NCBI GenBank assembly: GCA_002378195.1
Contig: DFRJ01000002.1
Coordinates: 129,054-193,053, forward strand
DNA length: 64,000 nt
DNA from: Patescibacteria group bacterium UBA3466
GTDB taxonomy: Bacteria > Patescibacteriota > Minisyncoccia > Phycocordibacterales > UBA918
Direction of reading: 5' to 3'
This document shows, one piece after another, positions 2,757 to 47,292 of the stretch. Numbering within the stretch: the stretch's first letter is position 1; the number at the start of each line of letters is the position of its first letter. The notes beneath the pieces are model-generated. The model saw only the letters and a program-made list of their open reading frames with translations. It searched no databases and had not been told where the DNA came from. The translations under genes and the position numbers were made by a program.

Positions 2757-3527
2757 TTGCCAAACAAGGAGGCAATAATGGTTGATTATCACTCTGAAGA
2801 GCTGTGGAATAATAAAAAAGGAGAGTTTGAACTTAATCCTAATTACATCCCTGGTTGCAACAGGACGAGATTAGTGCAAAGACTTAAGCGTCCGCGAGCT
2901 TCTGGCATGTTCTCATTTGGAGGAGCTGGTTATATCAACGGTGGTTTTACCGACGAAGGCTGGAAAATAGTGAAAGAACTGTGTTCATTTGCGTATATGG
3001 GCAGCGCAGAATTTGAGTTTGGAGCAGTACCTGAGGCATTCGAAAAAATGTCTGGAAACTATGACCAGCTTGAAGGGTATGTTGTTGATATCATCGGCAA
3101 CCCTTATTTTCCCTTTGGGTTTAGAAATAAAATCGGAGCGCTTGATTACCAGGTTAAGGAAGATTTATCTGAGCGTCACGTGCTCGAAGGGTCAGTCTTT
3201 GTGATAGCGCCTAGTGCTCTTCATGCGCATGTATGTGAGACTATTAAGACTCTTGCTCTTGATGAATATGCCTCACTTAAAGAGAACTCAGAATTGCAGC
3301 AAGTATTTTTCATTAACCCTCAATGGGAAGAGGCGTGTGTAAGTAGCGACACCTGTGGCTGGCTCGAGCTCGACAACGGCTTCATGTTCTTTAAAGATAG
3401 AGGGATGTGGCAAAATTTTTGCCAGTTGTTTGAGGTGGATATCTCAATGATTCCTGATGATGTAAAAGAGGTCGATTTCAGTGCGGTTGATGCTGAGATC
3501 CAGACACTGCTTGGACAAGCTGGATAA
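2757..3527 (+). CDS. Hypothetical protein (likely true start ATG ~2778 after the AGGAGG RBS)
   Basis: Long ORF with strong RBS and its own promoter; no recognisable motif. Flanked by two near-identical terminators. Confidence 0.6.
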   Translation: MPNKEAIMVDYHSEELWNNKKGEFELNPNYIPGCNRTRLVQRLKRPRASGMFSFGGAGYINGGFTDEGWKIVKELCSFAYMGSAEFEFGAVPEAFEKMSGNYDQLEGYVVDIIGNPYFPFGFRNKIGALDYQVKEDLSERHVLEGSVFVIAPSALHAHVCETIKTLALDEYASLKENSELQQVFFINPQWEEACVSSDTCGWLELDNGFMFFKDRGMWQNFCQLFEVDISMIPDDVKEVDFSAVDAEIQTLLGQAG

Positions 3528-8443: not shown

Positions 8444-9898
8444 ATGTCAAACATAGAAGACCTCCGAGGAGATAGAGAACAAAAGATCAATAAGCTGCGT
8501 GAAGCAGGGATAAACCCGTACCCCAGCGCTACCAACCGAACACATACAGTGGCTGATGTGATCGGAGATTTTGAAGCACTAGAATCTAGTCAGGAAGTAG
8601 TTACCATCACCGGGCGCATGATGGCTTTTCGTGAGCACGGCGCGATTGCTTTTGTTGATATTCAAGATGGAACCGGCAAGATTCAAGGCTTCTGTTCAAA
8701 GGAAGAGATGGGAGAAGACAACTTCGACTCTCTTCTTGGATTTATGAGTACTGCCGATTTTATTGAAGTGAAGGGGGTGGCGTATGTCACAAAGCGAGGC
8801 ACTCAAGCAGTGTTGGTTAAAGAGTGGCGCCCACTTGCCAAAGCGCTGCAAAATATCCCAACTGAGCACTTTGGTATCAAGGATGAAGATGAGCGTCTTA
8901 GAAAGCGCTACCTCGACCTGCTCTTAAGTGAGGAGCAGCGTGATCTTTTTGTGAAGAAAGCCAAGTTCTGGGATGTGACCAGAAGCTTCATGAAAGAGCA
9001 TGGTTTCCTAGAGGTCGAGACACCATTTATTGAAACCACTACCGGTGGAGCTGAAGCGCGTCCGTTTGCTACACATCACAACGATTTTGATCTCGATGTC
9101 TTCATGCGTATCTCAGTGGGAGAACTGTGGCAGAAACGCCTGATGGCCGGAGGCTTCGATAAGACCTTTGAGGTGGGGAAAGCGTTTCGAAATGAAGGAT
9201 CGAGCCCAGAGCACTTGCAAGAGTTTACCAATATGGAGTTCTACTGGGCCTACGCCAACTACGAAGATGGTATGAGGCTGGTGCGCGATCTTTATATCAG
9301 AATTGCTCAGGAAGTGTTTGGAACTACAAAATTTAACGTACGTGATCACGAGTTTGATCTAGCGGGTGAGTGGCAGCTGATTGATTATGTGGAAGAGGTT
9401 GAGAACAAGACCGGCGTCAATGTGATTACTGCGTCAGAAGATGAAATGAAAGCGAAGCTGGAAGAACTGGGTGTACAGTACGAGGGTGACAACAAGGAAC
9501 GACTCACTGACACTTTGTGGAAGTACTGTCGGAAGCAAATTTCTGGCCCGGCCTTTCTGGTCCACCATCCAAAGTTAGTAGCGCCACTGGCGAAGGTGCG
9601 AGAGGATGGGGTGACGGTAGAGCGCTTCCAGCCAATCATTGCCGGTAGCGAAGTGGGTAATGGCTACAGCGAGCTGAATGACCCAGTCGATCAGCGAGAA
9701 CGCTTTGAATTACAGCAAAAACTAATTGAATCAGGAGATGAAGAAGCTATGATGCCCGACTGGGAGTTTGTCGAAATGCTTGAGCACGGAATGCCGCCAA
9801 CTTGTGGCTTTGGCTTCGGTGAGCGACTCTTCTCATTTTTAGCGGGGCTACCAATCAGAGAGACTCAACTTTTCCCACTAGTAAAGCCAAAAGACTAG
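8444..9898 (+). CDS. lysS: Lysyl-tRNA synthetase, class II
   Basis: N-terminal OB anticodon-binding domain; class II motifs (FRNEG, GGAEARPF, GFGFGERL). Confidence 0.9.
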   Translation: MSNIEDLRGDREQKINKLREAGINPYPSATNRTHTVADVIGDFEALESSQEVVTITGRMMAFREHGAIAFVDIQDGTGKIQGFCSKEEMGEDNFDSLLGFMSTADFIEVKGVAYVTKRGTQAVLVKEWRPLAKALQNIPTEHFGIKDEDERLRKRYLDLLLSEEQRDLFVKKAKFWDVTRSFMKEHGFLEVETPFIETTTGGAEARPFATHHNDFDLDVFMRISVGELWQKRLMAGGFDKTFEVGKAFRNEGSSPEHLQEFTNMEFYWAYANYEDGMRLVRDLYIRIAQEVFGTTKFNVRDHEFDLAGEWQLIDYVEEVENKTGVNVITASEDEMKAKLEELGVQYEGDNKERLTDTLWKYCRKQISGPAFLVHHPKLVAPLAKVREDGVTVERFQPIIAGSEVGNGYSELNDPVDQRERFELQQKLIESGDEEAMMPDWEFVEMLEHGMPPTCGFGFGERLFSFLAGLPIRETQLFPLVKPKD

Positions 9899-9901
9899 AG
9901 T

Positions 9902-9929
9902 TTGACAAAACAATTTTTGTACGTATAAT
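9902..9929 (+). promoter_or_regulatory. Near-consensus sigma70 promoter
   Basis: TTGACA-16 nt-TATAAT, then GGAGGT RBS and ATG at 9962. Confidence 0.6.
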
Positions 9930-34816: not shown

Positions 34817-36824
34817 CATGGAACATAAACATACAGACAATCATTGTCATAGTCATGGCAGCCCGGGTATGGGACACGGGTCAGCAGGTACATTTCTAAA
34901 GCGGTTTTGGATCGTCACGTTTCTTTTGATTCCGCTTGTCTTTGCTAATGAGATGGTCATGAATGCACTTGGTCTTGATGCATATACTCTTAGCAAATGG
35001 ATAGGTTTTGGTATCGCCACTATTATTTTCGGTTTCGCACTCATTTTCTTTGAGCACGCACTACATGAAATAAAGGCCCGAGCTTATGGCATGATGACTT
35101 TGGTTTCTATTGCGGTTGCAGCTGGATATTTGTTTTCAGTGGCAGCGACTTTTTTACCGTCACTTGAAGCTGATTTTTATTTGGAAATATCAACCTTGAT
35201 TTGGGTGCTTCTATTTGGTCACTACTTAGAAGCAAAATCTGGTGCCGCAGCCGGTGACTCGTTGGCCGAAGTGGCTAAGCTTTTGCCGAAGCAAGCTCAT
35301 AAGTTAATCAATGGTGTAGAAACTGATGTCGACATCAGTGATTTAGCTGATGGGGATTTGGTTCTTGTTAAACCTGGTGAGAAAATACCAGCTGACGGGA
35401 TGATCATAGAAGGTTCAGCCAACGTTGATGAGGCACTGATCAGCGGTGAGTCAACTCCAGTACAGAAAAAAGCTAAAGATGAGGTGGTGGCAGGGTCAAT
35501 TTGTCTTGACGGTTCACTTACTATCTCACTTACAAGAGTTGGTGAACATTCAACTATTGGTCAAATTCAAAATCTCATTGCTACTGCACAGCAAACCAAA
35601 CCTAAGTCGCAACGACTGGCTGATAAAGCAGCGGGTATTCTTACGTTTGTAGCTGGTATTACTGCACTACTCACACTGCTTATTTGGACATTTGTGATTG
35701 GTCAACCATTTGTATTCGGGGCAACACTGGCAATCACAGTGCTGGTGATTGCGTGTCCACACGCACTAGGATTAGCTATTCCAACGGTCACTACCATCAC
35801 TACTTCGTTGGCGGTGAAAAATGGATTCTTTATTAAGAACCTTGCTAAGCTTGAAGTTATTAAAAAAGCTGACTACGTAGTTTTTGATAAAACCGGCACA
35901 TTAACTACAGGAGTATTTGGGGTTACTGATTTAGTGGCTGTGGGAGATGTTGCGGAAGATGAGGTGTTACGAATCGCTGCTTCACTTGAACAACATTCTT
36001 CTCACATTATTGGTGAATCAATTGTATCTCACGCTAAGGAACAGTCAGTTACAATGTCTGATATTTCAGCCTTTAAGAATGTTGCTGGTAAAGGCATTGT
36101 TGCTGAGATTGATGGTAAGAAATATGTGGCTGGTAACCGAGCCTTGATTGAATTCTTGGATATTTCGTTCACTAAAGCTGAATCTCCATATAATGAATTG
36201 ATATCGAACGGCAAAACTACAATCTTTGTTGCTGATGAATCAACCGTGATTGGTCTAGTGGCTCTGTCTGACGCTATCAAGCCTGAGTCTTATGAAGCAG
36301 TAAAACGTTTGCATGAGCTTGATGTGAAGGTGGCTATGTTGACTGGTGACAATACGCAGGTGGCACAAAGTGTGGCAAAAGAACTTAATATCGACACGTT
36401 TTTTGCTGAGGTTTTGCCCGAAGACAAGTACGCTCATATTAAGGAATTACAGGAATCAGGATCAGTAATCTTGATGGTTGGTGATGGAGTCAACGATGCG
36501 CCTGCCCTAACGCAGGCAGATGCTGGGATTGCTATTGGAGCAGGAACTGATGTGGCGGTTGAGGCGGGAGATGTTGTCTTAACTCGAAACAATCCCGAGG
36601 ATATTGTTCGACTTATTACGCTTTCACGAAAAGTGTATATAAAAATGATACAAAACCTTGTGTGGGCACTTGGGTATAACGTGATTGCTATCCCAGCCGC
36701 TGCCGGTGTGTTTGCCAGCCTCGGTTTCTTTTTACGGCCTGAGATTGGAGCATTTGTAATGAGTCTCTCAACGGTGATTGTGGTCGCTAATGCGATGTTG
36801 CTGAAGCGTATAGATTTAACGTAA
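34809..36824 (+). CDS. copB: CopB-type (P1B-3) copper-exporting ATPase with His-rich N-terminus
   Basis: N-terminal HKHTDNHCHSHGSPGMGHG; CPH in TM6 (IACPHALGLAIP); DKTGTLT; GDGVNDAP. Confidence 0.85.
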   Translation: MNNMEHKHTDNHCHSHGSPGMGHGSAGTFLKRFWIVTFLLIPLVFANEMVMNALGLDAYTLSKWIGFGIATIIFGFALIFFEHALHEIKARAYGMMTLVSIAVAAGYLFSVAATFLPSLEADFYLEISTLIWVLLFGHYLEAKSGAAAGDSLAEVAKLLPKQAHKLINGVETDVDISDLADGDLVLVKPGEKIPADGMIIEGSANVDEALISGESTPVQKKAKDEVVAGSICLDGSLTISLTRVGEHSTIGQIQNLIATAQQTKPKSQRLADKAAGILTFVAGITALLTLLIWTFVIGQPFVFGATLAITVLVIACPHALGLAIPTVTTITTSLAVKNGFFIKNLAKLEVIKKADYVVFDKTGTLTTGVFGVTDLVAVGDVAEDEVLRIAASLEQHSSHIIGESIVSHAKEQSVTMSDISAFKNVAGKGIVAEIDGKKYVAGNRALIEFLDISFTKAESPYNELISNGKTTIFVADESTVIGLVALSDAIKPESYEAVKRLHELDVKVAMLTGDNTQVAQSVAKELNIDTFFAEVLPEDKYAHIKELQESGSVILMVGDGVNDAPALTQADAGIAIGAGTDVAVEAGDVVLTRNNPEDIVRLITLSRKVYIKMIQNLVWALGYNVIAIPAAAGVFASLGFFLRPEIGAFVMSLSTVIVVANAMLLKRIDLT

Positions 36825-36851
36825 GTCAAATAGTATAATCGATACATCCAT

Positions 36852-37247
36852 ATGGGACAAAAATTGGGTACATCAATAGTGACGCTACTATTTCTTGGAG
36901 CTATGTTCGGGGGTCTTTTTCACATGGCGGGAATGGAAATGAGTGGTGGGATGACTGACTGTCCATACATGTCTCAACAAGAAACAATTTGTGCTATGAG
37001 CGTGTCTGAGCACTTGGGTGCCTGGCAGTCCACTTTTACATCTATCGCACCAACTCTGTTTACAATCCTAGGGCTGCTGTTTGTAGCTGTCGCAGTAGCT
37101 CAAATTGCACCGAATTTATTACGGAAAGTTAGACTAGCGTTAATCCGTTTATCGAGCACACAGTCAAGCAGTCGTGATTTCAATTTTGTAGCCAGACCGC
37201 TACAAGAACTATTCTCTAGCGGCATCCTACACCCCAAACTCTTCTAG
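36852..37247 (+). CDS. Small Met/Cys-rich membrane-associated protein (possible Cu-binding)
   Basis: HMAGMEMSGGMTDCPYMSQQETICAMS Met-rich cluster; hydrophobic segments. Confidence 0.4.
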   Translation: MGQKLGTSIVTLLFLGAMFGGLFHMAGMEMSGGMTDCPYMSQQETICAMSVSEHLGAWQSTFTSIAPTLFTILGLLFVAVAVAQIAPNLLRKVRLALIRLSSTQSSSRDFNFVARPLQELFSSGILHPKLF

Positions 37248-37295
37248 CTAATAAAAACAGCAGAGCATTCTGCATTTATTAGCTTAGAAATATGT

Positions 37296-37955
37296 ATGAA
37301 TAAAAAATTAATCCTTGGAGCAATACTGTTTGTTCCAACAGTATCGTTCGCGCACGATAGCGAACATGTAACGACAGCGTGGTATCAAAATCCATTAGTG
37401 CTCACGTTAACTGTTTTAACAGTTATTGCTCTTGGCACACTCTGCTACGGGTGGGTATCGAAAAGAAAAAACTTACAGATAGTACCTGCAGTGGCTCTCG
37501 TAGTAATCGCTGTCACCAGTTTCGCTATGTTTAGCCAACCAGTTGATACTTATGAACCAGAATTAGCAATGGCTGATTTTGGCACTGGCCAAACAGTCAC
37601 GTTGTATAAAAGTCCAAATTGTGGCTGCTGTAGTGGTCACGCTAAAGCACTCGAAGAAGCAGGCTTTGCTGTTAACATAGTTGAAACAGACGAGCTTGAT
37701 CAAATTAAAAGTGAACAAAATATTCCACCTACAGGCGCAAGTTGTCACACGTCAGTCATTGGTGACTATGTAGTTGAAGGTCATGTTCCCTTGGAGGCAA
37801 TTGAGAAATTACTGACTGAAAAACCCGATGTGGCCGGTATTGGACTACCAGGAATGCCTATCGGAACGCCTGGAATGCCAGGCAGGAAAACAGCACCCTA
37901 CGAGGTATATCAGCTATCGGAAGACGGGCAAATGTCACCGTACATGACAATCTAA
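37296..37955 (+). CDS. DUF411-family periplasmic copper-binding protein
   Basis: Signal peptide; CxCC motif (SPNCGCCSGH); C-terminal Met/Pro segment (GLPGMPIGTPGMPG). Confidence 0.7.
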   Translation: MNKKLILGAILFVPTVSFAHDSEHVTTAWYQNPLVLTLTVLTVIALGTLCYGWVSKRKNLQIVPAVALVVIAVTSFAMFSQPVDTYEPELAMADFGTGQTVTLYKSPNCGCCSGHAKALEEAGFAVNIVETDELDQIKSEQNIPPTGASCHTSVIGDYVVEGHVPLEAIEKLLTEKPDVAGIGLPGMPIGTPGMPGRKTAPYEVYQLSEDGQMSPYMTI

Positions 37956-37974
37956 TAACAAAAGTAAATAAAAT

Positions 37975-39690
37975 ATGAAATATATAAGCATTGCAGTACT
38001 CGCTCTCGTTCTGATTGGAGGAGGAGCGTGGTACTACACAAATAACATGCATTCCATGATGAATATGGACGGCATGATGATGGGACAAGAAATCCCTGAA
38101 AAAGAAAACTTATCAATCCTACATGACTCAGATGTTCCAGAGGTAAAACCAACAGAAGTCGTTGAGCTCAAGGATGGCGACACTTTTGACCTCACTGCTT
38201 CAATCGTGAAGCAGAAAGTTGGCAATCGAGAAGTAAAACGACTGGCATATAACGGTCAAATTCCTGGACCAATTCTTAAAGTGGAAAAGGGTTCAGAGGT
38301 GACCGTGAACTTCACGAATAACATCGATATGGAAACGTCGCTCCACTCACACGGTTTGCGAGGAGACTGGCAGATGGATGGTGCAGTGCCGATCACTCCA
38401 CCAGTAGAAATTGGCGAGACGTTTAGCTATCAACTCGAATTTCCTGACACTGGGGTCTTCTGGTATCACCCGCATGTTCGTGAGGACTACCAGCAAGACA
38501 TGGGCCTCTATGGCAACATGATTGTTGAAGAAGATGGATATTGGAACGAAGTAGACCAAGAGGAGTATCTCATCATTGATGATCTTCTTGAAGACGGTGA
38601 ATATAATCGTGCAATGGTCACTAATACACTGATGGGTCGTTTTGGTGACACTTTGCTCATTAATGATACAGAAGACTACGAACTCACGGTCAATCAAGGA
38701 GAAATTACTCGTGCGTTTATCACTAATGTAGCGAATACTAGAACCTTTGAGCTTGAATTTGAAGGAGCTGAGATGAAGCTAGTTGGTGGTGACTTAGGGC
38801 GTATTGAGCAGGAGGAAATGATTGAACATCAAATCATCGCTCCAGCGGAACGATACATCATTGAACTCTACTATGATACTCCAGGCACATACGCCATTGA
38901 CCACCGTGGTGAATCAATCGGAACAGTGACTGTGCAGCCGTCAGGTACAAACCAACAAGCTGAATTCTCGCAATTGCGGTCAAATGCTGGTGATTATGCA
39001 GAACTTCGAGCAAACACGTCAGCGTTGCTAGCAAAAGCACCAGACAAGAATCTTCGACTTGATATCGAAATGAAAGGTATGGGTGGTATGCAAATGATGC
39101 AGCAGATGATGGGAGGAGATTCTGACGGTGAAACCGTAAACCTTATGGGGATGGAAATGAACCGTGAGCAAGCTATTGAGCATTGTCAGATGATGCCAGG
39201 TATGGCTGGCTGCGAACCGTTCCTAAACGCTGAAGAAGAGTCAGATAGCATGGGAGGGATGGTGATGGGAGGAGATGAAGAACATAGTGAAGATGGAATT
39301 GAATGGGAAGATGATATGGCTATGATGAACAATATGAGTAACGACGAGATGATGGAATGGGTCATTGAAGACACTGATACTGGTGCTAAGAATGACGAGA
39401 TCGACTGGTCGTTTGAGACTGGTGATTTGGTGAAGGTGCGTGTATACAATGATGAAAATGGCATGCACCCAATGCAACACCCACTCCACTTCCACGGACA
39501 ACGTTTTGTTGTGTTGGCTACTGACGATGAACTTAACGAAAACATGCAGTGGAAAGATACTGTGTTGATTCCTAAGGGACAGACAGTAGATCTACTGGTC
39601 GACATGAGCAACCCAGGTAAATGGATGGCGCATTGTCACATTGCTGAACACCTGCACTCAGGGATGATGTTTAACTTTGAAGTGAAATAG
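37975..39690 (+). CDS. Multicopper oxidase (CueO/CopA-like) with Met-rich insertion
   Basis: Four Cu-site motifs (HSHG, WYHPH, HPLHFHG, HCHIAEHLHSGMM); long Met-rich insert (MGGMQMMQQMMGG...MMPGMAGC...MAMMNNMSNDEMMEW). Confidence 0.85.
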   Translation: MKYISIAVLALVLIGGGAWYYTNNMHSMMNMDGMMMGQEIPEKENLSILHDSDVPEVKPTEVVELKDGDTFDLTASIVKQKVGNREVKRLAYNGQIPGPILKVEKGSEVTVNFTNNIDMETSLHSHGLRGDWQMDGAVPITPPVEIGETFSYQLEFPDTGVFWYHPHVREDYQQDMGLYGNMIVEEDGYWNEVDQEEYLIIDDLLEDGEYNRAMVTNTLMGRFGDTLLINDTEDYELTVNQGEITRAFITNVANTRTFELEFEGAEMKLVGGDLGRIEQEEMIEHQIIAPAERYIIELYYDTPGTYAIDHRGESIGTVTVQPSGTNQQAEFSQLRSNAGDYAELRANTSALLAKAPDKNLRLDIEMKGMGGMQMMQQMMGGDSDGETVNLMGMEMNREQAIEHCQMMPGMAGCEPFLNAEEESDSMGGMVMGGDEEHSEDGIEWEDDMAMMNNMSNDEMMEWVIEDTDTGAKNDEIDWSFETGDLVKVRVYNDENGMHPMQHPLHFHGQRFVVLATDDELNENMQWKDTVLIPKGQTVDLLVDMSNPGKWMAHCHIAEHLHSGMMFNFEVK

Positions 39691-39707
39691 TCATTCACTT
39701 CTCATAC

Positions 39708-39740
39708 AAAAACAGCCTCAAATGAGGCTGTTTTTGTATG
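39708..39740. terminator. Bidirectional hairpin terminator
   Basis: AAAAACAGCCTCA-aat-GAGGCTGTTTTTG between the MCO gene and the convergent 2TM gene. Confidence 0.65.
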
Positions 39741-39805
39741 CTTCTCGTGCTAGCACGAATTGGTGACCCACATTAGTTTAAATTGGAACCAAATAAGTCA
39801 ATCTA

Positions 39806-40726
39806 TTAGGTCTTTAGTTTGAATTTGTTAGTCATCTGGTACTTGTATAGTTTTTCAACGAAGTTCTTTTTTTCTTTCTTGTAGAAAGTTTCTTCTTTTT
39901 CAAAAAGTTTATTAATTCTTTCTTGTAGAGCAAGTGATATTATCTCAAGCATAAAAAGCGTCAGAAAAATAAGCAGGATAAGTATTGGGTTTGAAGCTGA
40001 GAAGTCTCCAAATGGCCAATTTTGCCAAGAAATAATCCCGCCTATAAAGCTAATCAACAGTACTGAGAACAATAGGTTCTTTGAAATATAAAAATAATTA
40101 AAGAATGGCTCAATATCTTTCTGCTTCACCAGTTCTTCTTTAGTCCCTTGTTGAAAATGATAAATATCGATCGAAAGCTGTGCTCTCGATTCATATTTTT
40201 TGTTAGCTAACCAAAAAACAAACTTCAAAATAAGTTCATTTAAGGTGTTAAGTTTTCTTTTCCAAAACATTCTGTCTGAAAGGTGGTTGCTTTCTAAGAC
40301 CTCCACAAAGTCATTTATAGATATTTCCTTTCCTGTTTTTAAAACTTTAACCTTTTTGTCTGCAGTAAATTCAAATTCGCGATCTCTTTCAACTTCTCCG
40401 GATGAATAATAATTCGTCACTCTTTTTTTGTACTTGTCTCCATCAGTTATAGAATATGATATTTCAGGCTCTTCACCCTTGGGTTCAGTCATGTTTACTG
40501 AGTACGATATTTTTTCACCTTCAACTGAAACCTTGATGAACATTTTCATGTTGTCTTCAAAGTATTTTGTTTCTTCTGGGTAGTCTCTAATTATTGAAAA
40601 ACCGACACCGTCAATAAAACCGACAGTTTTCTCGTCTCTTTCTTTTTTAGTATATAGTTTTAATAATTCACTAGAATCCATTAGTTTGATTATGTAGACT
40701 TTACTCTTTATGTTATATCTTTTCAA
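39806..40726 (-). CDS. Hypothetical protein: soluble N-terminal domain plus C-terminal 2-TM hairpin
   Basis: AT-rich, Lys/Asn-rich; two hydrophobic helices near the C-terminus; co-directional with and 117 nt downstream of the NERD gene. Confidence 0.5.
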   Translation of the reverse strand: MKRYNIKSKVYIIKLMDSSELLKLYTKKERDEKTVGFIDGVGFSIIRDYPEETKYFEDNMKMFIKVSVEGEKISYSVNMTEPKGEEPEISYSITDGDKYKKRVTNYYSSGEVERDREFEFTADKKVKVLKTGKEISINDFVEVLESNHLSDRMFWKRKLNTLNELILKFVFWLANKKYESRAQLSIDIYHFQQGTKEELVKQKDIEPFFNYFYISKNLLFSVLLISFIGGIISWQNWPFGDFSASNPILILLIFLTLFMLEIISLALQERINKLFEKEETFYKKEKKNFVEKLYKYQMTNKFKLKT

Positions 40727-40842
40727 GCATGAAATATTCAGAAGAGATCATTGCAGAGTATAAGACTCTAATGAAACGTGACTATGACCACAAAGTCACA
40801 GACGACGAAGCTCAGTTGGAACTAAACAGTTTGGTAAAAGTT

Positions 40843-41673
40843 CTATTTGGTTGTGCTGGCAGTGACTCCAGTTTGTGTACTGAGAGGTATAGGAGTTAGT
40901 CCTTCTCCAGAATGTATAACTTCCAGATTTTCTGCGTGTTGCTCAGCGGTAACTTGTGTCTGGCAAAGAACGGAAAGTTTTCCTATGGCCATCAGTAACT
41001 CACCTTCACTTACAATTTCTTTTTTCTTTGATTCTATGTAATCGACTAAATCATCACCATGCATTACAGATGGTGGCATTTCAGTTTTAAACTCACTTTC
41101 TTCAGAAAAAACTATCACACTGTAGAAGCTTTTCTTCAAGAAAGGCATATGTTCTTTAAGGGCTGAGACATGAGCAAAGTTCTGAAGTATAGGGTTTTGG
41201 AAATGTGATTTCTTTCCCCAAAGTGTCTGAGTCCATTTCTTTTGGTTCTTGTGTCCAAATATCCATCCACTGTAATCTTTATTTTCAATTACAAAGATTC
41301 CGTACTTAGATACAATTATGTGGTCAATTTGTGTAGTTACAGTAACCGAAGAAGGAATGGTTATGTTGTTGAATATGTAATACTCTTTTGGATCCAAGTG
41401 TTCAGCTAAGTGCTTTACTAGTAGATACTCATAGCTTGTTAAATCATCTATGTAGCATCTGTGCCCATGCATCTCATTATTTGAAATACCCGTATCTGTT
41501 GACCACTTAGCAGTATGATTTGATCGAATACTTTGAGCTTCGGAGAGACGTCTTTTTATGTCTAAGCTTTCAGTTTCTGAATATGGGTTTCTCTTTTTTC
41601 GATTCTTAATCTTCTTGTATATCCATACAAAAAAGATTATCCAAAGAACACTAATAAAAAAGTCCTGATCCAT
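40843..41673 (-). CDS. NERD (nuclease-related domain) protein with N-terminal TM
   Basis: N-terminal TM; NERD-like core (HIIVSKYGIFVIENKDYSGWIFG). Confidence 0.65.
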   Translation of the reverse strand: MDQDFFISVLWIIFFVWIYKKIKNRKKRNPYSETESLDIKRRLSEAQSIRSNHTAKWSTDTGISNNEMHGHRCYIDDLTSYEYLLVKHLAEHLDPKEYYIFNNITIPSSVTVTTQIDHIIVSKYGIFVIENKDYSGWIFGHKNQKKWTQTLWGKKSHFQNPILQNFAHVSALKEHMPFLKKSFYSVIVFSEESEFKTEMPPSVMHGDDLVDYIESKKKEIVSEGELLMAIGKLSVLCQTQVTAEQHAENLEVIHSGEGLTPIPLSTQTGVTASTTK

Positions 41674-41715
41674 TAAGTCTAGTATATCAACGTAATTTTT
41701 CAGTAGTTGTTACAT

Positions 41716-41807
41716 ATACACCATCTTTAGCCGTGAAATCCCTCCTTTCGCTACGAAGCTTCGCGCTGCGAGCTTGCGAGCAGTGTGAAGGCGAAATGAA
41801 CGGCTAA
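41716..41807. repeat. Structured GC-rich intergenic element: 15-bp inverted repeat enclosing CGAAGCTTCG palindrome and GCGAGC direct repeats
   Basis: CACCATCTTTAGCCG ... CGGCTAAAGATGGTG arms flank ...TTTCGCTACGAAGCTTCGCGCTGCGAGCTTGCGAGCAG. Confidence 0.5.
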
Positions 41808-41809
41808 AG

Positions 41810-42571
41810 ATGGTGCATTTATTCACTTTTTATAGTACTTTGCTTCTAATGAACACAGTTGAAGAAGAAATGATTAAAGTTTTGGAATTGGTAGCTTTTA
41901 AATATGCTAAATGGGAAAAGCATAAGCTTGAGAACAATTCTGACCTACCAGAAATATCTCTGTATAAAGATGATTTTGAGGAAATGGGAATTACATATCA
42001 AGCAGCTTTGTTGCCTTTAAAGCAGCTTGAAGGTAAGGGAATGCTGATGATTGATCATATCTCTGATCCGCTTACCTTTGATCCAGAAAAGGATCCATTC
42101 GATGAAGAAGATATTGTTAATGGAAAATTGAGGGTCATGGTCTACAACTTAATTGTTGGAGGTTCATCTGTGTATCGCTACTTAGATGGTCTTAAGAATG
42201 GTTTTGAAGAGGACGAGTACACAAATAACTCACATGAAGCTAGCTTTGAGGAAGATGAGAGTATTTTAAATGTTGCTGGATATCAGATTAAAATCGCTTT
42301 GCAGGACAAGATAACTAACGACCATAAGATTTTAAACTACATCTTAAATCATGATGATGAAGAGGTTTACTATAAAGACATTGCGCAAAATGAATTTGGA
42401 GAGATAGCATATGGTGACAAAGATACTTCATGGAAGCGATACCATACATCTTGTAAATCAATCAACGATAAGGTTAGAGAGGTAACAAAAGGGAAGATCA
42501 ATGACTTTCTTATTTTTAATACAGGCAATAAAGGTAGAGTTAGAATTAATGGACTATACAGACATTCATAA
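41810..42571 (+). CDS. Hypothetical acidic protein
   Basis: AT-rich ORF flanked on both sides by GCGAGC-type repeats; no motif. Confidence 0.45.
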   Translation: MVHLFTFYSTLLLMNTVEEEMIKVLELVAFKYAKWEKHKLENNSDLPEISLYKDDFEEMGITYQAALLPLKQLEGKGMLMIDHISDPLTFDPEKDPFDEEDIVNGKLRVMVYNLIVGGSSVYRYLDGLKNGFEEDEYTNNSHEASFEEDESILNVAGYQIKIALQDKITNDHKILNYILNHDDEEVYYKDIAQNEFGEIAYGDKDTSWKRYHTSCKSINDKVREVTKGKINDFLIFNTGNKGRVRINGLYRHS

Positions 42572-42663
42572 AAGTTTACAGAATTTTAGGTAACTTCCTA
42601 GAACATAAAAAGAGTAACGTAGCACCATCGAGAGATGTGTGTTTTTTCTTTCGATCAACAGCC

Positions 42664-42722
42664 TAGGTCATTGTGCGAGCTTTCGCTTCGAAGCCTAGCG
42701 TGCGAGCGAAGCTCGCACGTGT
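42664..42722. repeat. Iteron-like GC-rich repeats upstream of the Rep gene
   Basis: ...TGTGCGAGCTTTCGCTTCGAAGCCTAGCGTGCGAGCGAAGCTCGCACG: GCGAGC direct and inverted copies and a CGAAGC motif. ~80% similar to the repeat at 41741-41789. Confidence 0.5.
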
Positions 42723-42746
42723 AGGACTTGATTAAAGGCATAGATA

Positions 42747-43604
42747 ATGAGAATGACAGAATATACTAATACAAAAATAGTTGCCGCTGGTCAGATTGTA
42801 CGCGTGACAAGGTATCTTGATGAGCCTGTCGCTTACAATTTTAAACGTAAAAAGGAAATTCCAATCGAAGGAATGTCTACTCGTGCTGAAAGAAGACGGG
42901 TGGCAAAAGAGGTTTATTGGACTCCTGAACGTCTCGAGAAAGAGCGTGAGCTAAACAGGAAGAAAGCAATGATCTCTGCAGCATCCCGCTTAAGAGACTG
43001 GGTGAACGCTAATGCGTGGCAGTATCGAGATGTGAATGGCCGTTTGTATCTGCCGGTGTTTGTGACGCTGACTTTTCGTGAGGATGTCAGAGATATAGAA
43101 ACAGCCAATGAGATTTTTACTTTATTTATAAAAAGATTAAATTTTTTCGTTCTTAAAGATAAGAGAGCAGAACTCAAGTATGTGAATGTTATTGAGTTTC
43201 AAGATAAGACTCGTGATGGAGTGATTCACTACCACACTCTCTTTTTCAATCTTCCATTTGTATACAAGAAAAAGCTCGAGAAGATTTGGGATCAAGGGTT
43301 TGTGAAAATTAAAAAGGTAGACAAGGTTAAGAATCTTGCTGGGTATATGACCAAGTACATGGTCAAAGGTTTTGATGATCCTCGTCTAGATGGCAAGAAA
43401 CGATATTTTCCTAGTAGAAACCTCATTAAGCCAACTGTGATTAGAGATGAGCTCACTGCAAAAGCTGTTCTGTTTCAATTGCCCGAAAAGAATCTTCATA
43501 AGGTTCGTGAGTTTGAAAGTGTTCATGTTGGCAAGGTAAAGGCTATGGACTTCATTCTCGATAAGGGTGAAACACTCCAAGACGTCATTGATTTTGTTAT
43601 ATGA
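42747..43604 (+). CDS. HUH-endonuclease rolling-circle replication initiator / relaxase-like protein
   Basis: HUH motif (VIHYHTLFF) followed by a Tyr-containing motif (AGYMTKYMVKG); upstream iteron-like repeats. Confidence 0.55.
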   Translation: MRMTEYTNTKIVAAGQIVRVTRYLDEPVAYNFKRKKEIPIEGMSTRAERRRVAKEVYWTPERLEKERELNRKKAMISAASRLRDWVNANAWQYRDVNGRLYLPVFVTLTFREDVRDIETANEIFTLFIKRLNFFVLKDKRAELKYVNVIEFQDKTRDGVIHYHTLFFNLPFVYKKKLEKIWDQGFVKIKKVDKVKNLAGYMTKYMVKGFDDPRLDGKKRYFPSRNLIKPTVIRDELTAKAVLFQLPEKNLHKVREFESVHVGKVKAMDFILDKGETLQDVIDFVI

Positions 43605-43779
43605 TCACCTTGTCTCGAATTAGAGAAATTGAACCCTCGTTGAGAGATGCTTCTGATGAAGAAGTTGCTCAAATTCGTGACCAAATCTATGGTTTAGCCC
43701 AGCTTGCTTATGATTGTTACAAAAAAGAGAATGATTCCAAATTCCCCATGGGGTCATTGCAAGTAGACGATATGAAGTA
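43600..43779 (+). CDS. Possible small helical protein (59 aa) between Rep and the recombinase
   Basis: ATG overlaps the Rep stop (ATATGA); ends TAG 3 nt before the recombinase ATG. Absent from the ORF track (short). Placement suggests a possible RDF/Xis-like protein. Confidence 0.25.
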
Positions 43780-43782
43780 GCT

Positions 43783-45321
43783 ATGTATGATAATCCTATG
43801 AAAGCAGGTAATGCAGTGATCTATTGTCGTGTATCGTCCCTAGAACAGGTTGAAGGAACCAGTCTTGAGTCTCAGGAACGTATGTGTCGAGACTACGCTA
43901 AAAGAGAAGGAATGGCTGTCTCAGAGGTGTTTATAGATCGTGGTGAGTCTGCTAAAACAGCAGATCGTACAGAATTTTTAAATGCCATATCGTACTGCTC
44001 CAAAAAGAAGAATGATGTCAGTCACTTCGTCGTATACAAGTTAGATCGCTTTGCCCGTAACCAAGAAGACCACATAGGAGTTCGTGCCAAGCTGAAACAA
44101 TATGGTGTCCAACTGCGCTCAGTCACTGAGCCGATTGATGATTCTCCAATGGGTAAGATGATGGAAGGTATCCTCTCTACTTTTGCAGAGTTCGACAACA
44201 ACGTTCGTACTGAAAGAAGCACAAACGGAATGAAAGAACGTCTTAAGAAAGGAATTTGGGTCTGGTCAGCACCACTTGGATACAAGCGTCTAGAGAAAGG
44301 TGGAAATTTAGTTCCTGATGAAGCAAACGCACACTACGTACGCATGGTTTTTGATGAGTATTCCAAAGGTGTTCATACATACAAAACACTAGCCACACTT
44401 TTATTTGAAAAAGGGTTTCGTTCCAAAGGTGGTAAAAAGATTCCGTTTCAAACTTACGAGAAGATGCTTAAGAATCCACTCTACTGCGGAATCATTAAGG
44501 TTGATACGTGGGGAGTTGAGATGAGAGGAGATTTTGAACCAATCATTTCAGAAGACCTCTTCAGGAAGTGTCAGGAGTCAGGTCGCACACACAAATCATT
44601 TTCAAAACTGACCAAGAACCCCGATTTTCCATTGAGGAAGATTGTTGTTTGTGAATGGTGTGGTGCTCCACTAACCGGTAGTTATTCAACTGGTCGTCAT
44701 GGAAAGAAGTATGGTTACTATCATCACCACAAGCAAGGTTGCCCTTGTGCTAGCTCGATCAGGAAGGATGATTTGGAGAAAGATTTTGTTTCTTTACTGG
44801 AAGAGATCAATCCGACTGTGCAGTACGCAAATCTGTTTAAAGAGGCATTCATGGAGATCTACAATGAAGAAAATAAGAAAAGCGAAGAGACTAGCGCTGC
44901 GGCTCAGAAAGAGCTTGAGAAACTGAAAGATAAGAAAGCTCATATCTATAACAACTTTGAAGATGGTGTGTACACCAAGACAGAGTTTTTAGAGCGTAAG
45001 AGGGAAGTAGACAAGCTTATCATTGCTGGAGAGTCAGTTATTGCAACTGAGGATACGTCAGACGTCGATATCGAGAAAGCGCTCGACTACTGCCTGAGCT
45101 TTGTTACTGACACACCAAACAAATGGAGTGAATTGGCAAAATACCCTGAAGAACGCTTGCGGTTCCAAAATTTTATTTTTGACGGCAATATTCCGTATAC
45201 ACAAAACAACGGTTTTGGAACCGCTGTTTTGTCGCCTATTTATTCGATATATCAGCATTGGCAGGCTGATAATTCTTCTTTGGTGATCCCACGGGGAATC
45301 GAACCCCGATTTCCAGGATGA
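43783..45321 (+). CDS. Large serine recombinase (integrase), intact
   Basis: N-terminal resolvase catalytic domain with nucleophile Ser (AVIYCRVSSLEQ) and KLDRFARN; recombinase domain; zinc ribbon (CEWCGAPL...GCPC); coiled coil. The 3' end overlaps the tRNA-Glu 3' end. Confidence 0.85.
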   Translation: MYDNPMKAGNAVIYCRVSSLEQVEGTSLESQERMCRDYAKREGMAVSEVFIDRGESAKTADRTEFLNAISYCSKKKNDVSHFVVYKLDRFARNQEDHIGVRAKLKQYGVQLRSVTEPIDDSPMGKMMEGILSTFAEFDNNVRTERSTNGMKERLKKGIWVWSAPLGYKRLEKGGNLVPDEANAHYVRMVFDEYSKGVHTYKTLATLLFEKGFRSKGGKKIPFQTYEKMLKNPLYCGIIKVDTWGVEMRGDFEPIISEDLFRKCQESGRTHKSFSKLTKNPDFPLRKIVVCEWCGAPLTGSYSTGRHGKKYGYYHHHKQGCPCASSIRKDDLEKDFVSLLEEINPTVQYANLFKEAFMEIYNEENKKSEETSAAAQKELEKLKDKKAHIYNNFEDGVYTKTEFLERKREVDKLIIAGESVIATEDTSDVDIEKALDYCLSFVTDTPNKWSELAKYPEERLRFQNFIFDGNIPYTQNNGFGTAVLSPIYSIYQHWQADNSSLVIPRGIEPRFPG

Positions 45322-45355
45322 GAACCTGGCGTCCTAGCCGTTAGACGATGGGACC
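45281..45355 (-). tRNA. tRNA-Glu (anticodon CUC), CCA encoded
   Basis: Minus-strand sequence GGTCCCATCGTCTAACGGCTAGGACGCCAGGTTCTCATCCTGGAAATCGGGGTTCGATTCCCCGTGGGATCACCA folds by hand into a cloverleaf: 7-bp acceptor, D arm, anticodon loop UUCUCAU, 5-bp T stem CGGGG/CCCCG with TTCGATT loop. Confidence 0.85.
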
Positions 45356-45410
45356 TGTTGGTAGCCAAAGAATACTAGCAAATTAAAGTAAAAACTTAAA
45401 GCAGTTTTAT

Positions 45411-45437
45411 AAGAAAAATCGCCGAGAAATCGGCGAT
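45411..45437. terminator. Bidirectional hairpin terminator
   Basis: AAAAATCGCCGA-gaa-ATCGGCGATTTT just downstream of the minus-strand oxidase gene. Confidence 0.6.
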
Positions 45438-45438
45438 T

Positions 45439-47292
45439 TTAGTTTGTAGTTCGCATGGTTTCCTTAATGTCAAAGCGAGGGTTTACTTTCTTACCAGGGT
45501 TGAAAATGTCGTTGGGATCAAAGAGGTTTTCAGTCCTCTCAAACAGACCGAGCATTTTCTTAGAAAACATTTTGTTTAGGTGGGGAGTGCGGATGATGCC
45601 GTCGTTGTGTTCGCCACAGATATTGCCCTCAAACTTAACGGCAGTACTGAAGAATTTTTCAGACATTTTTTCTACCAGCTTTGGTGTGGTCTTATTGGTG
45701 AAGTCCAAAAGGGGATAGAAGTGGAAGTGACCATTTCCACCGTGGCCATGGACAGCGGCAGTGATATTGAATTCCTTGAGGAGCTTCTTAATCTGGATGA
45801 AGAACTTGGAGAGGTTCTCAGGTGGAACTGTCATGTCTTCAAGGAAGGCCGCTGGTCGCTTGGAGGTGTCCTGGAACTTAGAAAGGGTGTAGCTAGCTCG
45901 TCTGATTTGCCAATACATTTCAGATTCAATAGGGTTGGTTACCACTCGGGGCTTAACTGACCCTTTGCCAATTTTTTTGGCAATCTCGGCGGCTGGGGTT
46001 TTGTCAGTAGTCGCTTCATCAAGAGTGACCAAAACAGTAAATTCGGGCACCTTGCGACGGAAGCGGACGTGGTAGGTGGAGTACATTGAAAACATCACCT
46101 TGTAGTAGTCTGACTTACTTAGTCGATCCTTAAAGAAACCAGGGTTTTGCAAGGCCAAGTTGAAGGTGAGAGAGTCAAAAACTTCGACATTGATAGGATT
46201 AAATTTAAGGGTTTTCACAATGCAGTCAGCTGCATCTTCTAGGTCGAAGATCGGTAGTGCAATGAGAGTGGTGTTCTCCGGAATAGGAAGAGCTCGTAGG
46301 GTCATGTTGGTGATAATACCAATGGTGCCCTGACTGCCAGAGATAAGTCGAGTGAGATCGAAAGTGCCTTCACCTTTTTTGAATTTATTAACTCCTTGTG
46401 GCATTACGCTCCAAAGCGGGTAGCCCGCGCTGTTCTTTTTGGTGTGCGGCGCATTTTTCTTGATCTCTTTCTCGTTTTTGTTGATCAGGTCAAAAATTTC
46501 CTTAGCTACTCGGGCGTGTTCATGGTCTTGCTTGATGAGCAGTTTGTACTCGCGGTAGGTAATTGGCTTGATGGTGTAGGTGTGTCCGTCGTGTAGGGTA
46601 ACGTCTAGGGATTCAACCCAGTCAGCACAGTGGCCGTGGCGAAGAGAGTCAGGTCCAGCTGCGTTGTTAGCGATGGATCCGCCGACACTACAAATATCCT
46701 TTGAAGCAGGGTAAGGAGGTAGGTAAACGTTGCTAGCTTTTAGTTTCTTTTCAACATCCTTCCACATCGCGCCAGGTTCACAGGTAAAGGTGGTCTTATC
46801 CTTTTTTGTGATTACGTCACCAATCTTATTGAGGTGAGCGCAAACGTCGATGACGATTGAGTCCGTTAGGGAGCCGCCGCCAAGACCAGTTCCGGCTGCT
46901 CTAGGGGTAAGTGAAAGTGAAGGGAAGCGCTTGGTCTCCTCAGCGATAACCTTAGTGGCAATTTCAACGTCGCCACGGTTCTTTGGTTGGATCACTACTT
47001 GTGGTCGGATTGAAAAAATACTTTCATCGGTACTGTAGGCATCGAGGAGAGCTTTCTTGCTAGAGATACCGCCTCGAAAACCAGCTTCACGCAGCATTTT
47101 TTCAACTAGTAGGTGAGCTAGTGGGTTGCGCTTAATGGCGGCTGTCTTCTCAATTTTCTTGGCGGTTTGGCGGATGCTGGCTGTAGTGGTTTTAGGAGTG
47201 CTCTTTTTTCGAGCAGTCTTTTTAGCCGGCGCTTTTTTCTTGGTAGCGCGTTTGGTTGACGACTTCTTTACCGCCGTAGAAGAACGTGACAT
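45439..47292 (-). CDS. FAD-linked oxidase (GlcD / D-lactate dehydrogenase family) with Lys/Ala/Thr-rich N-terminal tail
   Basis: FAD-binding PCMH domain and C-terminal FAD-oxidase domain; first ~60 aa MSRSSTAVKKSSTKRATKKKAPAKKTARKKSTPKTTT... are histone-H1-like low complexity. Confidence 0.8.
   Translation of the reverse strand: MSRSSTAVKKSSTKRATKKKAPAKKTARKKSTPKTTTASIRQTAKKIEKTAAIKRNPLAHLLVEKMLREAGFRGGISSKKALLDAYSTDESIFSIRPQVVIQPKNRGDVEIATKVIAEETKRFPSLSLTPRAAGTGLGGGSLTDSIVIDVCAHLNKIGDVITKKDKTTFTCEPGAMWKDVEKKLKASNVYLPPYPASKDICSVGGSIANNAAGPDSLRHGHCADWVESLDVTLHDGHTYTIKPITYREYKLLIKQDHEHARVAKEIFDLINKNEKEIKKNAPHTKKNSAGYPLWSVMPQGVNKFKKGEGTFDLTRLISGSQGTIGIITNMTLRALPIPENTTLIALPIFDLEDAADCIVKTLKFNPINVEVFDSLTFNLALQNPGFFKDRLSKSDYYKVMFSMYSTYHVRFRRKVPEFTVLVTLDEATTDKTPAAEIAKKIGKGSVKPRVVTNPIESEMYWQIRRASYTLSKFQDTSKRPAAFLEDMTVPPENLSKFFIQIKKLLKEFNITAAVHGHGGNGHFHFYPLLDFTNKTTPKLVEKMSEKFFSTAVKFEGNICGEHNDGIIRTPHLNKMFSKKMLGLFERTENLFDPNDIFNPGKKVNPRFDIKETMRTTN

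Follow-up and report, generated by a model that had tools for sequence, protein, structure and literature searches.

A probable integrative rolling-circle element with a phiX174-type Rep and a serine integrase at a tRNA-Glu gene of a marine Patescibacteria chromosome

The nearest described kind of element to the one reported here is the integrative mobilisable element (IME) of streptococci belonging to the Rel_PHA00330 class (Coluzzi et al. 2017, PMC5357655). Two further kinds were compared. The pSAM2 type of AICEs (integrative and conjugative elements that occur in actinomycetes), likewise small at ~9-24 kb, leave the chromosome by excision and afterwards replicate as rolling circles with an initiator of their own, RepSA. 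The marine VEIMEs were defined as concatemers found in virus particles, have mainly Pelagibacter and Prochlorococcus as hosts, and in some cases carry a serine recombinase, with rolling-circle-like replication inferred (Eppley et al. 2022, PMC9618062). The mobile elements of Patescibacteria (CPR, the candidate phyla radiation) are barely charted, and according to a recent survey plasmids have rarely been studied in this group (PMC12023590). The locus analysed here lies in a 64,000-nucleotide stretch of the assembly of Patescibacteria group bacterium UBA3466 (contig DFRJ01000002.1, positions 129,054 to 193,053); this whole stretch is referred to as the window, and all positions without a contig name are window positions.

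Segment 39767-45286 of the window, 5,520 bp in length, is probably an integrative rolling-circle element, which amounts to a rolling-circle plasmid that has become part of a marine Patescibacteria chromosome. It is inserted into the last 7 bp of a tRNA-Glu gene. A serine integrase adjoining the tRNA and an HUH Rep of the phiX174/pHT926 type, with a hairpin and the motif ACTTG|ATTA directly upstream of it, are found together in this one island. The host is Paceibacteria/Kaiserbacteria-like, and its LysRS has 75-78% identity to proteins filed under Candidatus Kaiserbacteria, Paceibacteria, Parcubacteria, or Patescibacteria.

Integration at the tRNA-Glu gene

The GC content drops from ~0.44 in the flanks to 0.35-0.39 between roughly 39.8 and 45.0 kb, and the heptamer TTGGTGA stands at both ends of this segment, followed by CCCAC at the left (39760-39766) and by TCCCAC at the right (45280-45286), which is the tRNA 3' end on the plus strand. 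Boundaries were mapped by scanning JGI metagenome contigs for the 27 nt left of the island, and 15 contigs were recovered. The site was empty in 10 of the 15, with TTGGTGA leading directly into the tRNA-Glu gene and with the same tRNA 3' end, TGGTGATCCCAC. One of these, L129, was 96.8% identical to window 35320-39771 over 4.46 kb and, past the left flank, joined window 45280-45355 at 98.7% identity, where the tRNA was called by ARAGORN. Because L129 joins the left flank straight to the tRNA, the island is a 5,520-bp insertion. An earlier reading of the DNA made from the sequence only had proposed integration at the tRNA, which this precise empty site in a 97%-identical relative bears out; its extent for the module (42664-45355) took in only the right-hand ~2.7 kb, and the island reaches 2.9 kb further left.

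The att sites are arranged as those of a serine integrase, with TTGGTGA blocks of attL and attR at the two ends and an empty attB, GCTAGCACGAATTGGTGATCCCACGGGGAATCG, in L129 and other contigs. Since attL lacks the T that follows TTGGTGA in attB and attR, the crossover is placed within the 7-bp block. The reconstructed attP reads ...GATAATTCTTCT-TTGGTGA-CCCACATTAG...AATTGGAAC, and its predicted junction is AATTCTTCTTTGGTGACCCACATTAGTTTA (also written CTGATAATTCTTCTTTGGTGACCCACATTAGTTTAAATTGG). In the left-end arm AATTGGAAC is located ~15-23 nt from the junction, the same distance as at the left ends of the related elements L057, L058, and L061, whose integrase-side arms carry CAATTC ~25 nt out from the junction. 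These two motifs form an imperfect inverted pair of the kind expected for a serine-integrase attP. Two further details of the arms were recorded. The octamer TTGGAACC of the left-end arm (39782-39789) is also present inside a palindrome, GGTTTTGGAACC (45211-45222), in the 3' part of the integrase gene, where it codes for a conserved FGT motif, and a terminator-like hairpin, TATCAGCATTGGCAGGCTGATA (45250-45271), is situated just before the right junction.

Contigs L033, L127, L128, L133, and L136 share the left flank and depart exactly after TTGGTGA into different DNA; the tRNA-Glu site is evidently used repeatedly by inserts. One type of these inserts (L033 at 9794-9913 and the four other contigs were inspected) opens with the tRNA trailer in degenerate tandem repetition (GCCTTCTCGTGATGCGACCAATAGG...), and a second type opens with CCCAAT.G..TGGCTTTCAGAACTTT; the junction in L128 is only ~700 bp from the tRNA. 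Behind the tRNA-Glu gene come a palindrome (TCGTGCTAGCACGA) and then a terminator-like hairpin of bidirectional type (ATACAAAAACAGCCTCAAATGAGGCTGTTTTTGTAT) (window 39703-39759), which are kept in many Patescibacteria contigs with otherwise unrelated flanks. The tRNA-Glu of L129 (4446-4520) has the anticodon TTC where the occupied window (45281-45355) has CTC, a single wobble-base change, and L129 and the window have unrelated DNA on the right side of the tRNA.

Other approaches to the boundaries were set aside. A search for long direct tRNA repeats as att sites (45-nt probe, 3 mismatches) returned the tRNA itself only, and generic repeat finding gave chance matches only, so that the boundary was taken from the contig comparison instead. 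Contig L034 (8042-8775) leaves the window sequence at 45183 into unrelated DNA, which was judged to be a low-coverage SPAdes assembly break and not an alternative junction; L027, from the same sample, ends at that same point. In an Rfam search of 39000-46000 the tRNA alone passed, and the hairpins matched no RNA family. A promoter scan produced fewer hits than shuffled sequence and was unused.

Rep, its putative origin, and the integrase

The Rep protein matched Pfam PF23343 (REP_ORF2-G2P; E 8.9e-21, 74.5 bits against a cut-off of 27.8) and the PHROG rolling-circle initiator families phrog_3584 (E 1.5e-21) and phrog_3419 (E 1.8e-20), and PF23343 was present in all of the 98 Rep homologues. Across 30 homologues, down to 28% identity, no variation was seen at T107, T109, H161, H163, or Y200, and at least 90% keep K203 and Y204. 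The conserved residues are exactly those of the three HUH motifs, FVTLTF (T107, T109), HYH (H161/H163), and YMTKY (Y200/K203/Y204), the last of which matches the two-tyrosine arrangement of phiX174 protein A. A profile search of the Rep alignment against PDB sequences found no relative, and fold comparison was needed. The AlphaFold2 (AF2) model, built on 14 homologues (pLDDT 86, pTM 0.81), had as its best PDB match in Foldseek the SIRV1 ORF119 Rep (2x3g; probability 1.00, TM 0.59 on the target), followed by the Rep domains of PCV2, TYLCV, and FBNYV, circovirus and geminivirus Reps among them; the E-values of the fold matches were weak (at least 7e-3). The sequence-only reading had called the protein an HUH Rep from its HYH and YMTKYMVK motifs. 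The Pfam and PHROG matches, the motifs, and the predicted HUH fold uphold this, and the PF23343 match together with the fold speaks against membership in an unrelated non-HUH family. Translation probably starts at the second ATG (42753, the third codon), which would give 283 aa as in the homologues.

By tblastn, the nearest annotated relatives of Rep are those of the plasmids pHT926, pGTG5, and pKH9, at 40-47% identity over the core; microvirus and inovirus-like initiators rank after them at 26-41%. Two circular contigs of 1.5-1.8 kb from Firmicutes bins, L083 and L094 (terminal overlaps of 55 and 127 nt), encode a homologous Rep only and are minimal rolling-circle plasmids of the pGTG5 type. 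Extrachromosomal homologues, the absence of which had been named as evidence against the sequence-only reading, are thus represented by three plasmids and these two circular contigs.

Upstream of rep, GCGAGC occurs at 42675 and 42702 and in inverted form, GCTCGC, at 42711. Three copies fall within 42 nt, where the full 64 kb has 31 on both strands, so this cluster is not due to chance. It had been taken for iteron-like repeats, but the copies are the arms of a hairpin beside a nick motif of the phiX174/pC194 type, and a check for a nick site or hairpin in this region found the hairpin and a predicted nick site. The hairpin has a perfect 9-bp stem, CGTGCGAGC-GAA-GCTCGCACG (42699-42707 / 42711-42719), with a GAA loop and a GCGAAGC mini-hairpin tip; an alternative 10-bp pairing uses the 5' arm 42673-42682. 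Among 83 distinct upstream regions, GCG[AG]AGC (a G-N-A triloop closed by C-G) was found on the plus strand in 16, where 1.2 were expected and the maximum in 500 shuffles was 5, and on the opposite strand in only 2. The motif ACTTGATTA (42726-42734) is located 6 nt downstream of the hairpin and 12 nt before the Rep ATG; the predicted nick span is GGACTTGATTAAAGG, or GTGTAGGACTTGATTAAAGGCATAG in a longer form.

Upstream regions of 68 distinct relatives gave the family origin consensus gACTTGATtata..cACACtTAA, preceded by a GC-rich hairpin of unrelated sequence. The hairpin and nick motif stay in the relatives while the stem sequence changes, and 37 of these relatives have an exact CTTGA[TC] upstream of rep, 8-60 nt from its start codon. 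The consensus is matched by the phiX174 origin, CAACTTG|ATATTAATAACACT (CAACTTGATATTAATAACACT), in which the nick is annotated at A4306 (CTTG|AT), and both pHT926 and pGTG5 have the same ACTTGATTATAG upstream of rep. From these sequence comparisons it is concluded that the hairpin and ACTTGATTA constitute the putative double-strand origin of a rolling-circle replicon, with a predicted nick, and not an iteron array.

A second, longer hairpin of 87 nt occupies the divergent intergenic region. Its DNA fold of -30.2 kcal/mol (z = -6.5) was matched in stability by 0 of 200 shuffles, and it includes two copies of GCGAGC and the palindrome CGAAGCTTCG. This hairpin may be a single-strand origin or an operator. 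GCGAGC and TTTCGCTNCGAAGC occur in the 87-nt hairpin as well as in the Rep-proximal hairpin region. Several relatives (L005 3100-3150, L006 8560-8611, L008 8830-8868, also L053, L055, and L061) have another non-coding block, conserved upstream of their regulator-like ORF, that is absent from the window. It runs ...ATGCC, a small hairpin with loop TTGCT, then GGTTTAGGCTACT, shows compensatory changes in the arms, and could be a single-strand origin or a regulatory RNA.

The integrase carries the domains PF00239 (Resolvase, E 3.1e-34), PF07508 (Recombinase, E 3e-13), and PF13408 (Zn_ribbon_recom, E 5.1e-8), matched phrog_95 at E 1.9e-92, and found the SPbeta, A118, and TP901-1 integrases among PDB sequences. 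The identification as a large serine integrase in the sequence-only reading is confirmed by this domain architecture and these relatives, and so is the statement that its gene runs into the tRNA, with an overlap of 41 nt. After Leu-Val (TTG GTG), 11 further codons antisense to the tRNA, IPRGIEPRFPG, are followed by the stop TGA, the complement of the anticodon-loop UCA; integrases reading into the tRNA were also found in relatives. On the excised circle the tail would be THISLNWNQISQSIRSLV, as translated from the reconstructed junction.

Between rep and the integrase lies a 59-aa ORF, for which start/stop overlaps with both neighbours had been proposed. The overlap with the Rep stop (ATGA) is present, but the stop of the ORF precedes the integrase ATG by 2 nt, so that these two genes are adjacent without overlapping. 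Where the integrase had at least 48% identity and the junction between Rep and integrase was kept, almost every Rep locus had a counterpart of 58-66 aa, and the ORF is regarded as a real, conserved gene. Its pattern is MIxLxxxRKIxPxLxxxSDxExxxIRxxLYxLxxLAxExY, and a single-sequence AF2 model was mostly one long helix. There was no match to Pfam, PHROG, or PADLOC families, hence to no known family of recombination directionality factors, and a homologue search with the ORF returned itself only. From its position and its coupling to Rep, the 59-aa protein is a plausible candidate for a recombination directionality factor or an accessory protein.

The cargo in the left third of the element consists of a protein with a NERD (nuclease-related domain) nuclease domain and a membrane protein. 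The NERD protein showed weak PADLOC matches to the NERD-like parts of PglW and MkoA. The 56-aa ORF has a counterpart in the related contig L001, a small ORF at 2795-2971 with 43% identity (E 4e-13) that is translationally coupled there to a regulator-like ORF. This counterpart marks the 56-aa ORF as part of the conserved backbone, with the NERD gene apparently inserted between it and its usual neighbour. Genes in the position of the 253-aa ORF had sub-threshold matches to OmpR-type winged-helix domains (Trans_reg_C) in L001 and L004 (E 1.3e-4 and 0.037), and the window protein had no family match. All features are listed in Table 1.

Table 1. Features of the island and of its integration target, in window coordinates
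Feature	Position	Strand	Remarks
attL identity block TTGGTGA	39760-39766		Host side is the conserved tRNA-Glu trailer and terminator; crossover placed within these 7 bp
attL element-side arm (P')	39767-39795		CCCACATTAGTTTAAATTGGAACCAAATA, with motif AATTGGAAC
Cargo ORF	39806-40726	-	306 aa from TTG start (291 aa in public assemblies); C-terminal hydrophobic segments; no family match
Conserved backbone ORF, 56 aa	40729-40899	+	Overlaps 3' end of NERD gene
NERD cargo protein	40843-41673	-	276 aa; Pfam PF08378, E 3.8e-29
Imperfect hairpin, 87 nt	41719-41805	+	Perfect 15-bp closing stem (ACCATCTTTAGCCGT / ACGGCTAAAGATGGT); divergent intergenic region
253-aa ORF	41810-42571	+	240 aa from ATG at 41849; position of variable regulator-like gene
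GC-rich hairpin region (formerly read as iterons)	42673-42719	+	Fold z = -4.4
Predicted double-strand origin core	42726-42746	+	ACTTGATTAAAGGCATAGATA; predicted nick between G42730 and A42731 (ACTTG|ATTA)
Rep, HUH rolling-circle replication initiator	42747-43604	+	285 aa; two catalytic Tyr in YxxKY; PF23343, PHROGs, motifs, fold
Conserved helical protein, 59 aa	43601-43780	+	Translationally coupled to Rep; start overlaps Rep stop as ATGA
Large serine integrase	43783-45321	+	512 aa; last 13 codons and stop are antisense of tRNA-Glu when integrated
attR element-side arm (P) and TTGGTGA (45280-45286)	45250-45286		Within integrase coding sequence
tRNA-Glu(CUC), integration target	45281-45355	-	ARAGORN; Rfam tRNA 60.4 bits; intact after insertion

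Family, mobility, and alternative explanations

The distribution of such loci was surveyed by scanning one genome per GTDB species with a Rep profile (alignment A3; the 30-Rep alignment A2 was too diverse for the scan). The scan yielded 80 Rep loci, mostly in Patescibacteria lineages. A serine integrase was encoded directly downstream on the same strand in 50 of them, and in 31 of these 50 an opposite-strand tRNA gene (Glu, Ala, Arg, Asn, Asp, Gln, Gly, Pro, or Ser) was located just beyond. Metagenome contigs with Reps 41-88% identical showed the same order of Rep, small ORF, integrase, and tRNA. Relatives that could be delimited measured 4.7-7.0 kb (among them 4.7, 5.8, 6.4, and ~6.6 kb), and the cargo differed: Shedu SduA in L001 (PADLOC E 4.9e-29), an 808-aa ATPase in L005, DUF4145 in L006, and DUF2726 in L016-L018. 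Contig L058 has two left-end arms (CTAATTATAC[GA]GAATTGGAAC) at 3467 and 4111, 644 bp apart and upstream of one element, which suggests a tandem remnant of an earlier insertion. The window element apparently belongs to a large family of mini-elements with different defence-like cargo that is so far undescribed; a literature search, of incomplete coverage, returned no description of such Rep-integrase elements in Patescibacteria.

From the intact, conserved parts and the precise presence/absence polymorphism we infer excision, replication, and transfer, which might proceed as follows. The integrase would have recombined attP with the tRNA 3' end (attB), with crossover within TTGGTGA, by which the tRNA would be regenerated. 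Excision by the same integrase should require a directionality factor, for which the Rep-coupled 59-aa protein is the sole candidate. Rep would nick the plus strand of the excised supercoiled circle between G42730 and A42731, binding the 5' end via Tyr200 or Tyr204; a single strand of unit length would next be displaced by the helicase and polymerase of the host, and Rep would reclose it. The 87-nt hairpin may prime the complementary strand. Replication of this kind would keep the excised form from loss and would supply copies or single strands for transfer.

Several observations weigh against this interpretation. Among the contigs carrying Rep and integrase, none was circular by terminal overlap, and the predicted attP junction 30-mer was absent from JGI metagenome contigs and IMG/VR contigs. 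No counterpart of the 87-nt hairpin was found upstream of the regulator-like ORF in six relatives. The compared copies showed 100% identity throughout the island, and no second locus was seen for the element, which also fits a fixed, inactive island. Finally, Rep could be a conjugative relaxase instead of, or besides, a replication initiator. The proposal in the sequence-only reading of an integrated rolling-circle plasmid or an integrative mobilisable element therefore stands as regards integration, the HUH Rep, and the extrachromosomal Rep homologues, but the circular metagenome form with the same Rep that it had suggested looking for was not found, either for the element or for any Rep-integrase relative.

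A strict IME is possible, if unlikely. The Rep-like protein would then be a non-canonical relaxase, the hairpin and nick motif would be an oriT (origin of transfer), and export would take place via a type IV secretion system (T4SS) encoded elsewhere; this overlaps the interpretation as a rolling-circle element because one protein could do both. The att-bounded island has an integrase, an HUH protein, and a hairpin with the predicted nick site, and no T4SS genes. The same Rep type (PHA00330, pHT926-like), read as a relaxase, accompanies tyrosine or serine integrases in streptococcal IMEs (PMC5357655), the plasmid pKH9 pairs it with an FtsK/SpoIIIE protein, and mobilisation is conceivable because Patescibacteria encode a conjugation-type T4SS homologous to monoderm conjugation machinery (PMC12857230). 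However, no TcpA, FtsK, or VirD4-like coupling protein was detected in the island ORFs (Pfam, PHROGs, PADLOC) or in the gene lists of relatives, and among characterised homologues the nearest are proteins that replicate plasmids of 1.5-1.8 kb with no other cargo. Nor were conjugation genes present in the annotated parts of the 64-kb window, which had no exhaustive search.

It is doubtful that the island is an immobilised remnant, once mobile and now a fixed chromosomal segment kept for its cargo. Such a remnant would account for the identical copies at one locus and for the lack of an excised form in the contig collections, but no backbone ORF is disrupted, conservation extends to the catalytic motifs, the origin motif, and the two att arms, and relatives with Reps 75-88% identical have different cargo. 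The 97%-identical relative that lacks precisely the island moreover implies a recent gain or loss.

A satellite or defective prophage of a single-stranded DNA (ssDNA) phage, in which Rep would generate single-stranded circles of unit length, as large as a microvirus genome, for packaging by a helper phage, is very improbable. Rep and origin are of the phiX174 type, the element sizes in the family overlap those of microvirus and inovirus genomes, and capsid-less marine integrative elements packaged in virions are known (VEIMEs; PMC9618062). Nevertheless, no capsid, scaffolding, morphogenesis (pI/Zot), or packaging gene was found in the island ORFs (Pfam, PHROGs), which rules out an ssDNA prophage of the Microviridae or Inoviridae; IMG/VR held no close relative, its best viral contigs reaching 27-29% identity in the Rep core only, and the attP junction was absent from viral contigs. 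A VEIME-like satellite lifestyle found no positive support, and the lack of an IMG/VR relative or junction is weak negative evidence only. It would take a bold extrapolation, with very little probability, to regard the Patescibacteria Rep-integrase elements at large as integrative satellites of ssDNA phages, whose 4.7-7-kb single-stranded circles would be loaded into helper procapsids and would spread single-gene defence cargo; if true, it would be a satellite system without precedent among ssDNA phages.

For the origin region, true iterons acting as initiator-titrating binding sites, as in theta plasmids, are scarcely credible: five GCGAGC/GCTCGC and five CGAAGC/GCTTCG copies are clustered in the intergenic segments 41754-41781 and 42675-42716 and could thus be recognised by a DNA-binding protein, but they form perfect inverted repeats, relatives retain the hairpin at this position and not its sequence, and Rep is of the nicking HUH class and not an iteron-binding initiator.

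As an integrative rolling-circle element, the island is a cleanly delimited example of seemingly widespread minimal elements that combine a phiX174-type Rep and origin with a serine integrase at tRNA 3' ends and with variable, single-gene cargo (NERD, Shedu, DUF4145, and DUF2726 proteins). If active, these elements would provide a route of defence-gene exchange among ultra-small, reduced genomes, and compact natural parts (an attP/attB pair of ~50 bp, an integrase, and a small replicon) from which genetic tools could be made for a phylum that has few. They would also bring microvirus replication modules together with small plasmids of Gram-positive bacteria and with integrative elements in a single evolutionary picture.

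Comparison with known systems

The window integrase shares its resolvase catalytic domain, recombinase domain, and zinc ribbon with the A118, SPbeta SprA, TP901-1, and phiC31 integrases. As in these large serine integrases of phages, the identity between attP and attB is short, with crossover in a few common bases, and a directionality factor is expected for excision. Targeting of the 3' end of tRNA genes is the usual habit of tyrosine, not serine, integrases. The window integrase differs from the phage enzymes in belonging to a 5.5-kb non-viral element, in targeting the last bases of a tRNA gene, and in having an attP that overlaps its own 3' coding end.

Like the VEIMEs, the window element is marine, small, integrative, and capsid-less, and both carry an integrase, replication genes, and interference or defence-like genes (PMC9618062). 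Whereas VEIMEs were obtained from virus particles, the window element had no match in viral contigs. With the AICEs of the pSAM2 type it has residence in a tRNA gene in common, and both pair integration with a rolling-circle initiator. The AICEs, however, use a tyrosine integrase, Xis, and an FtsK-like Tra for transfer of double-stranded DNA, whereas the window element has a serine integrase and no Tra. Membership in that group was excluded by the serine integrase, by a RepSA match of 15.3 bits against a cut-off of 34, and by the lack of an FtsK-like gene.

The plasmids pHT926 (Brevibacillus) and pGTG5 (Geobacillus) have a Rep of the same family, with 40-43% identity and the motifs FxTLT, HUH, and YxxKY. 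These plasmids, phiX174, and the window element share the origin core ACTTGATTATAG / CAACTTGATATTAATAACACT, upstream of rep (within gene A in phiX174), and in all of them a GC-rich hairpin adjoins the origin. While pHT926 and pGTG5 are autonomous 1.5-1.8-kb plasmids and phiX174 is a 5.4-kb virus, none with an integrase, the window element is chromosomal and adds an integration module and cargo.

Streptococcal IMEs and the window element are both small and att-bounded, encode a pHT926-like Rep-type protein together with a site-specific integrase (a serine integrase in some IMEs), and show modular exchange of cargo and integration modules; homology between their Reps is presumed by way of pHT926. 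A TcpA (FtsK-like) coupling protein is also present in most streptococcal IMEs, whose Rep-like protein is interpreted as a relaxase, whereas the window element has no coupling protein. The hosts of the IMEs are Bacillota and that of the window element belongs to the Patescibacteria. The window element targets the extreme 3' end of a tRNA gene, and its integrase ORF reads into the tRNA.

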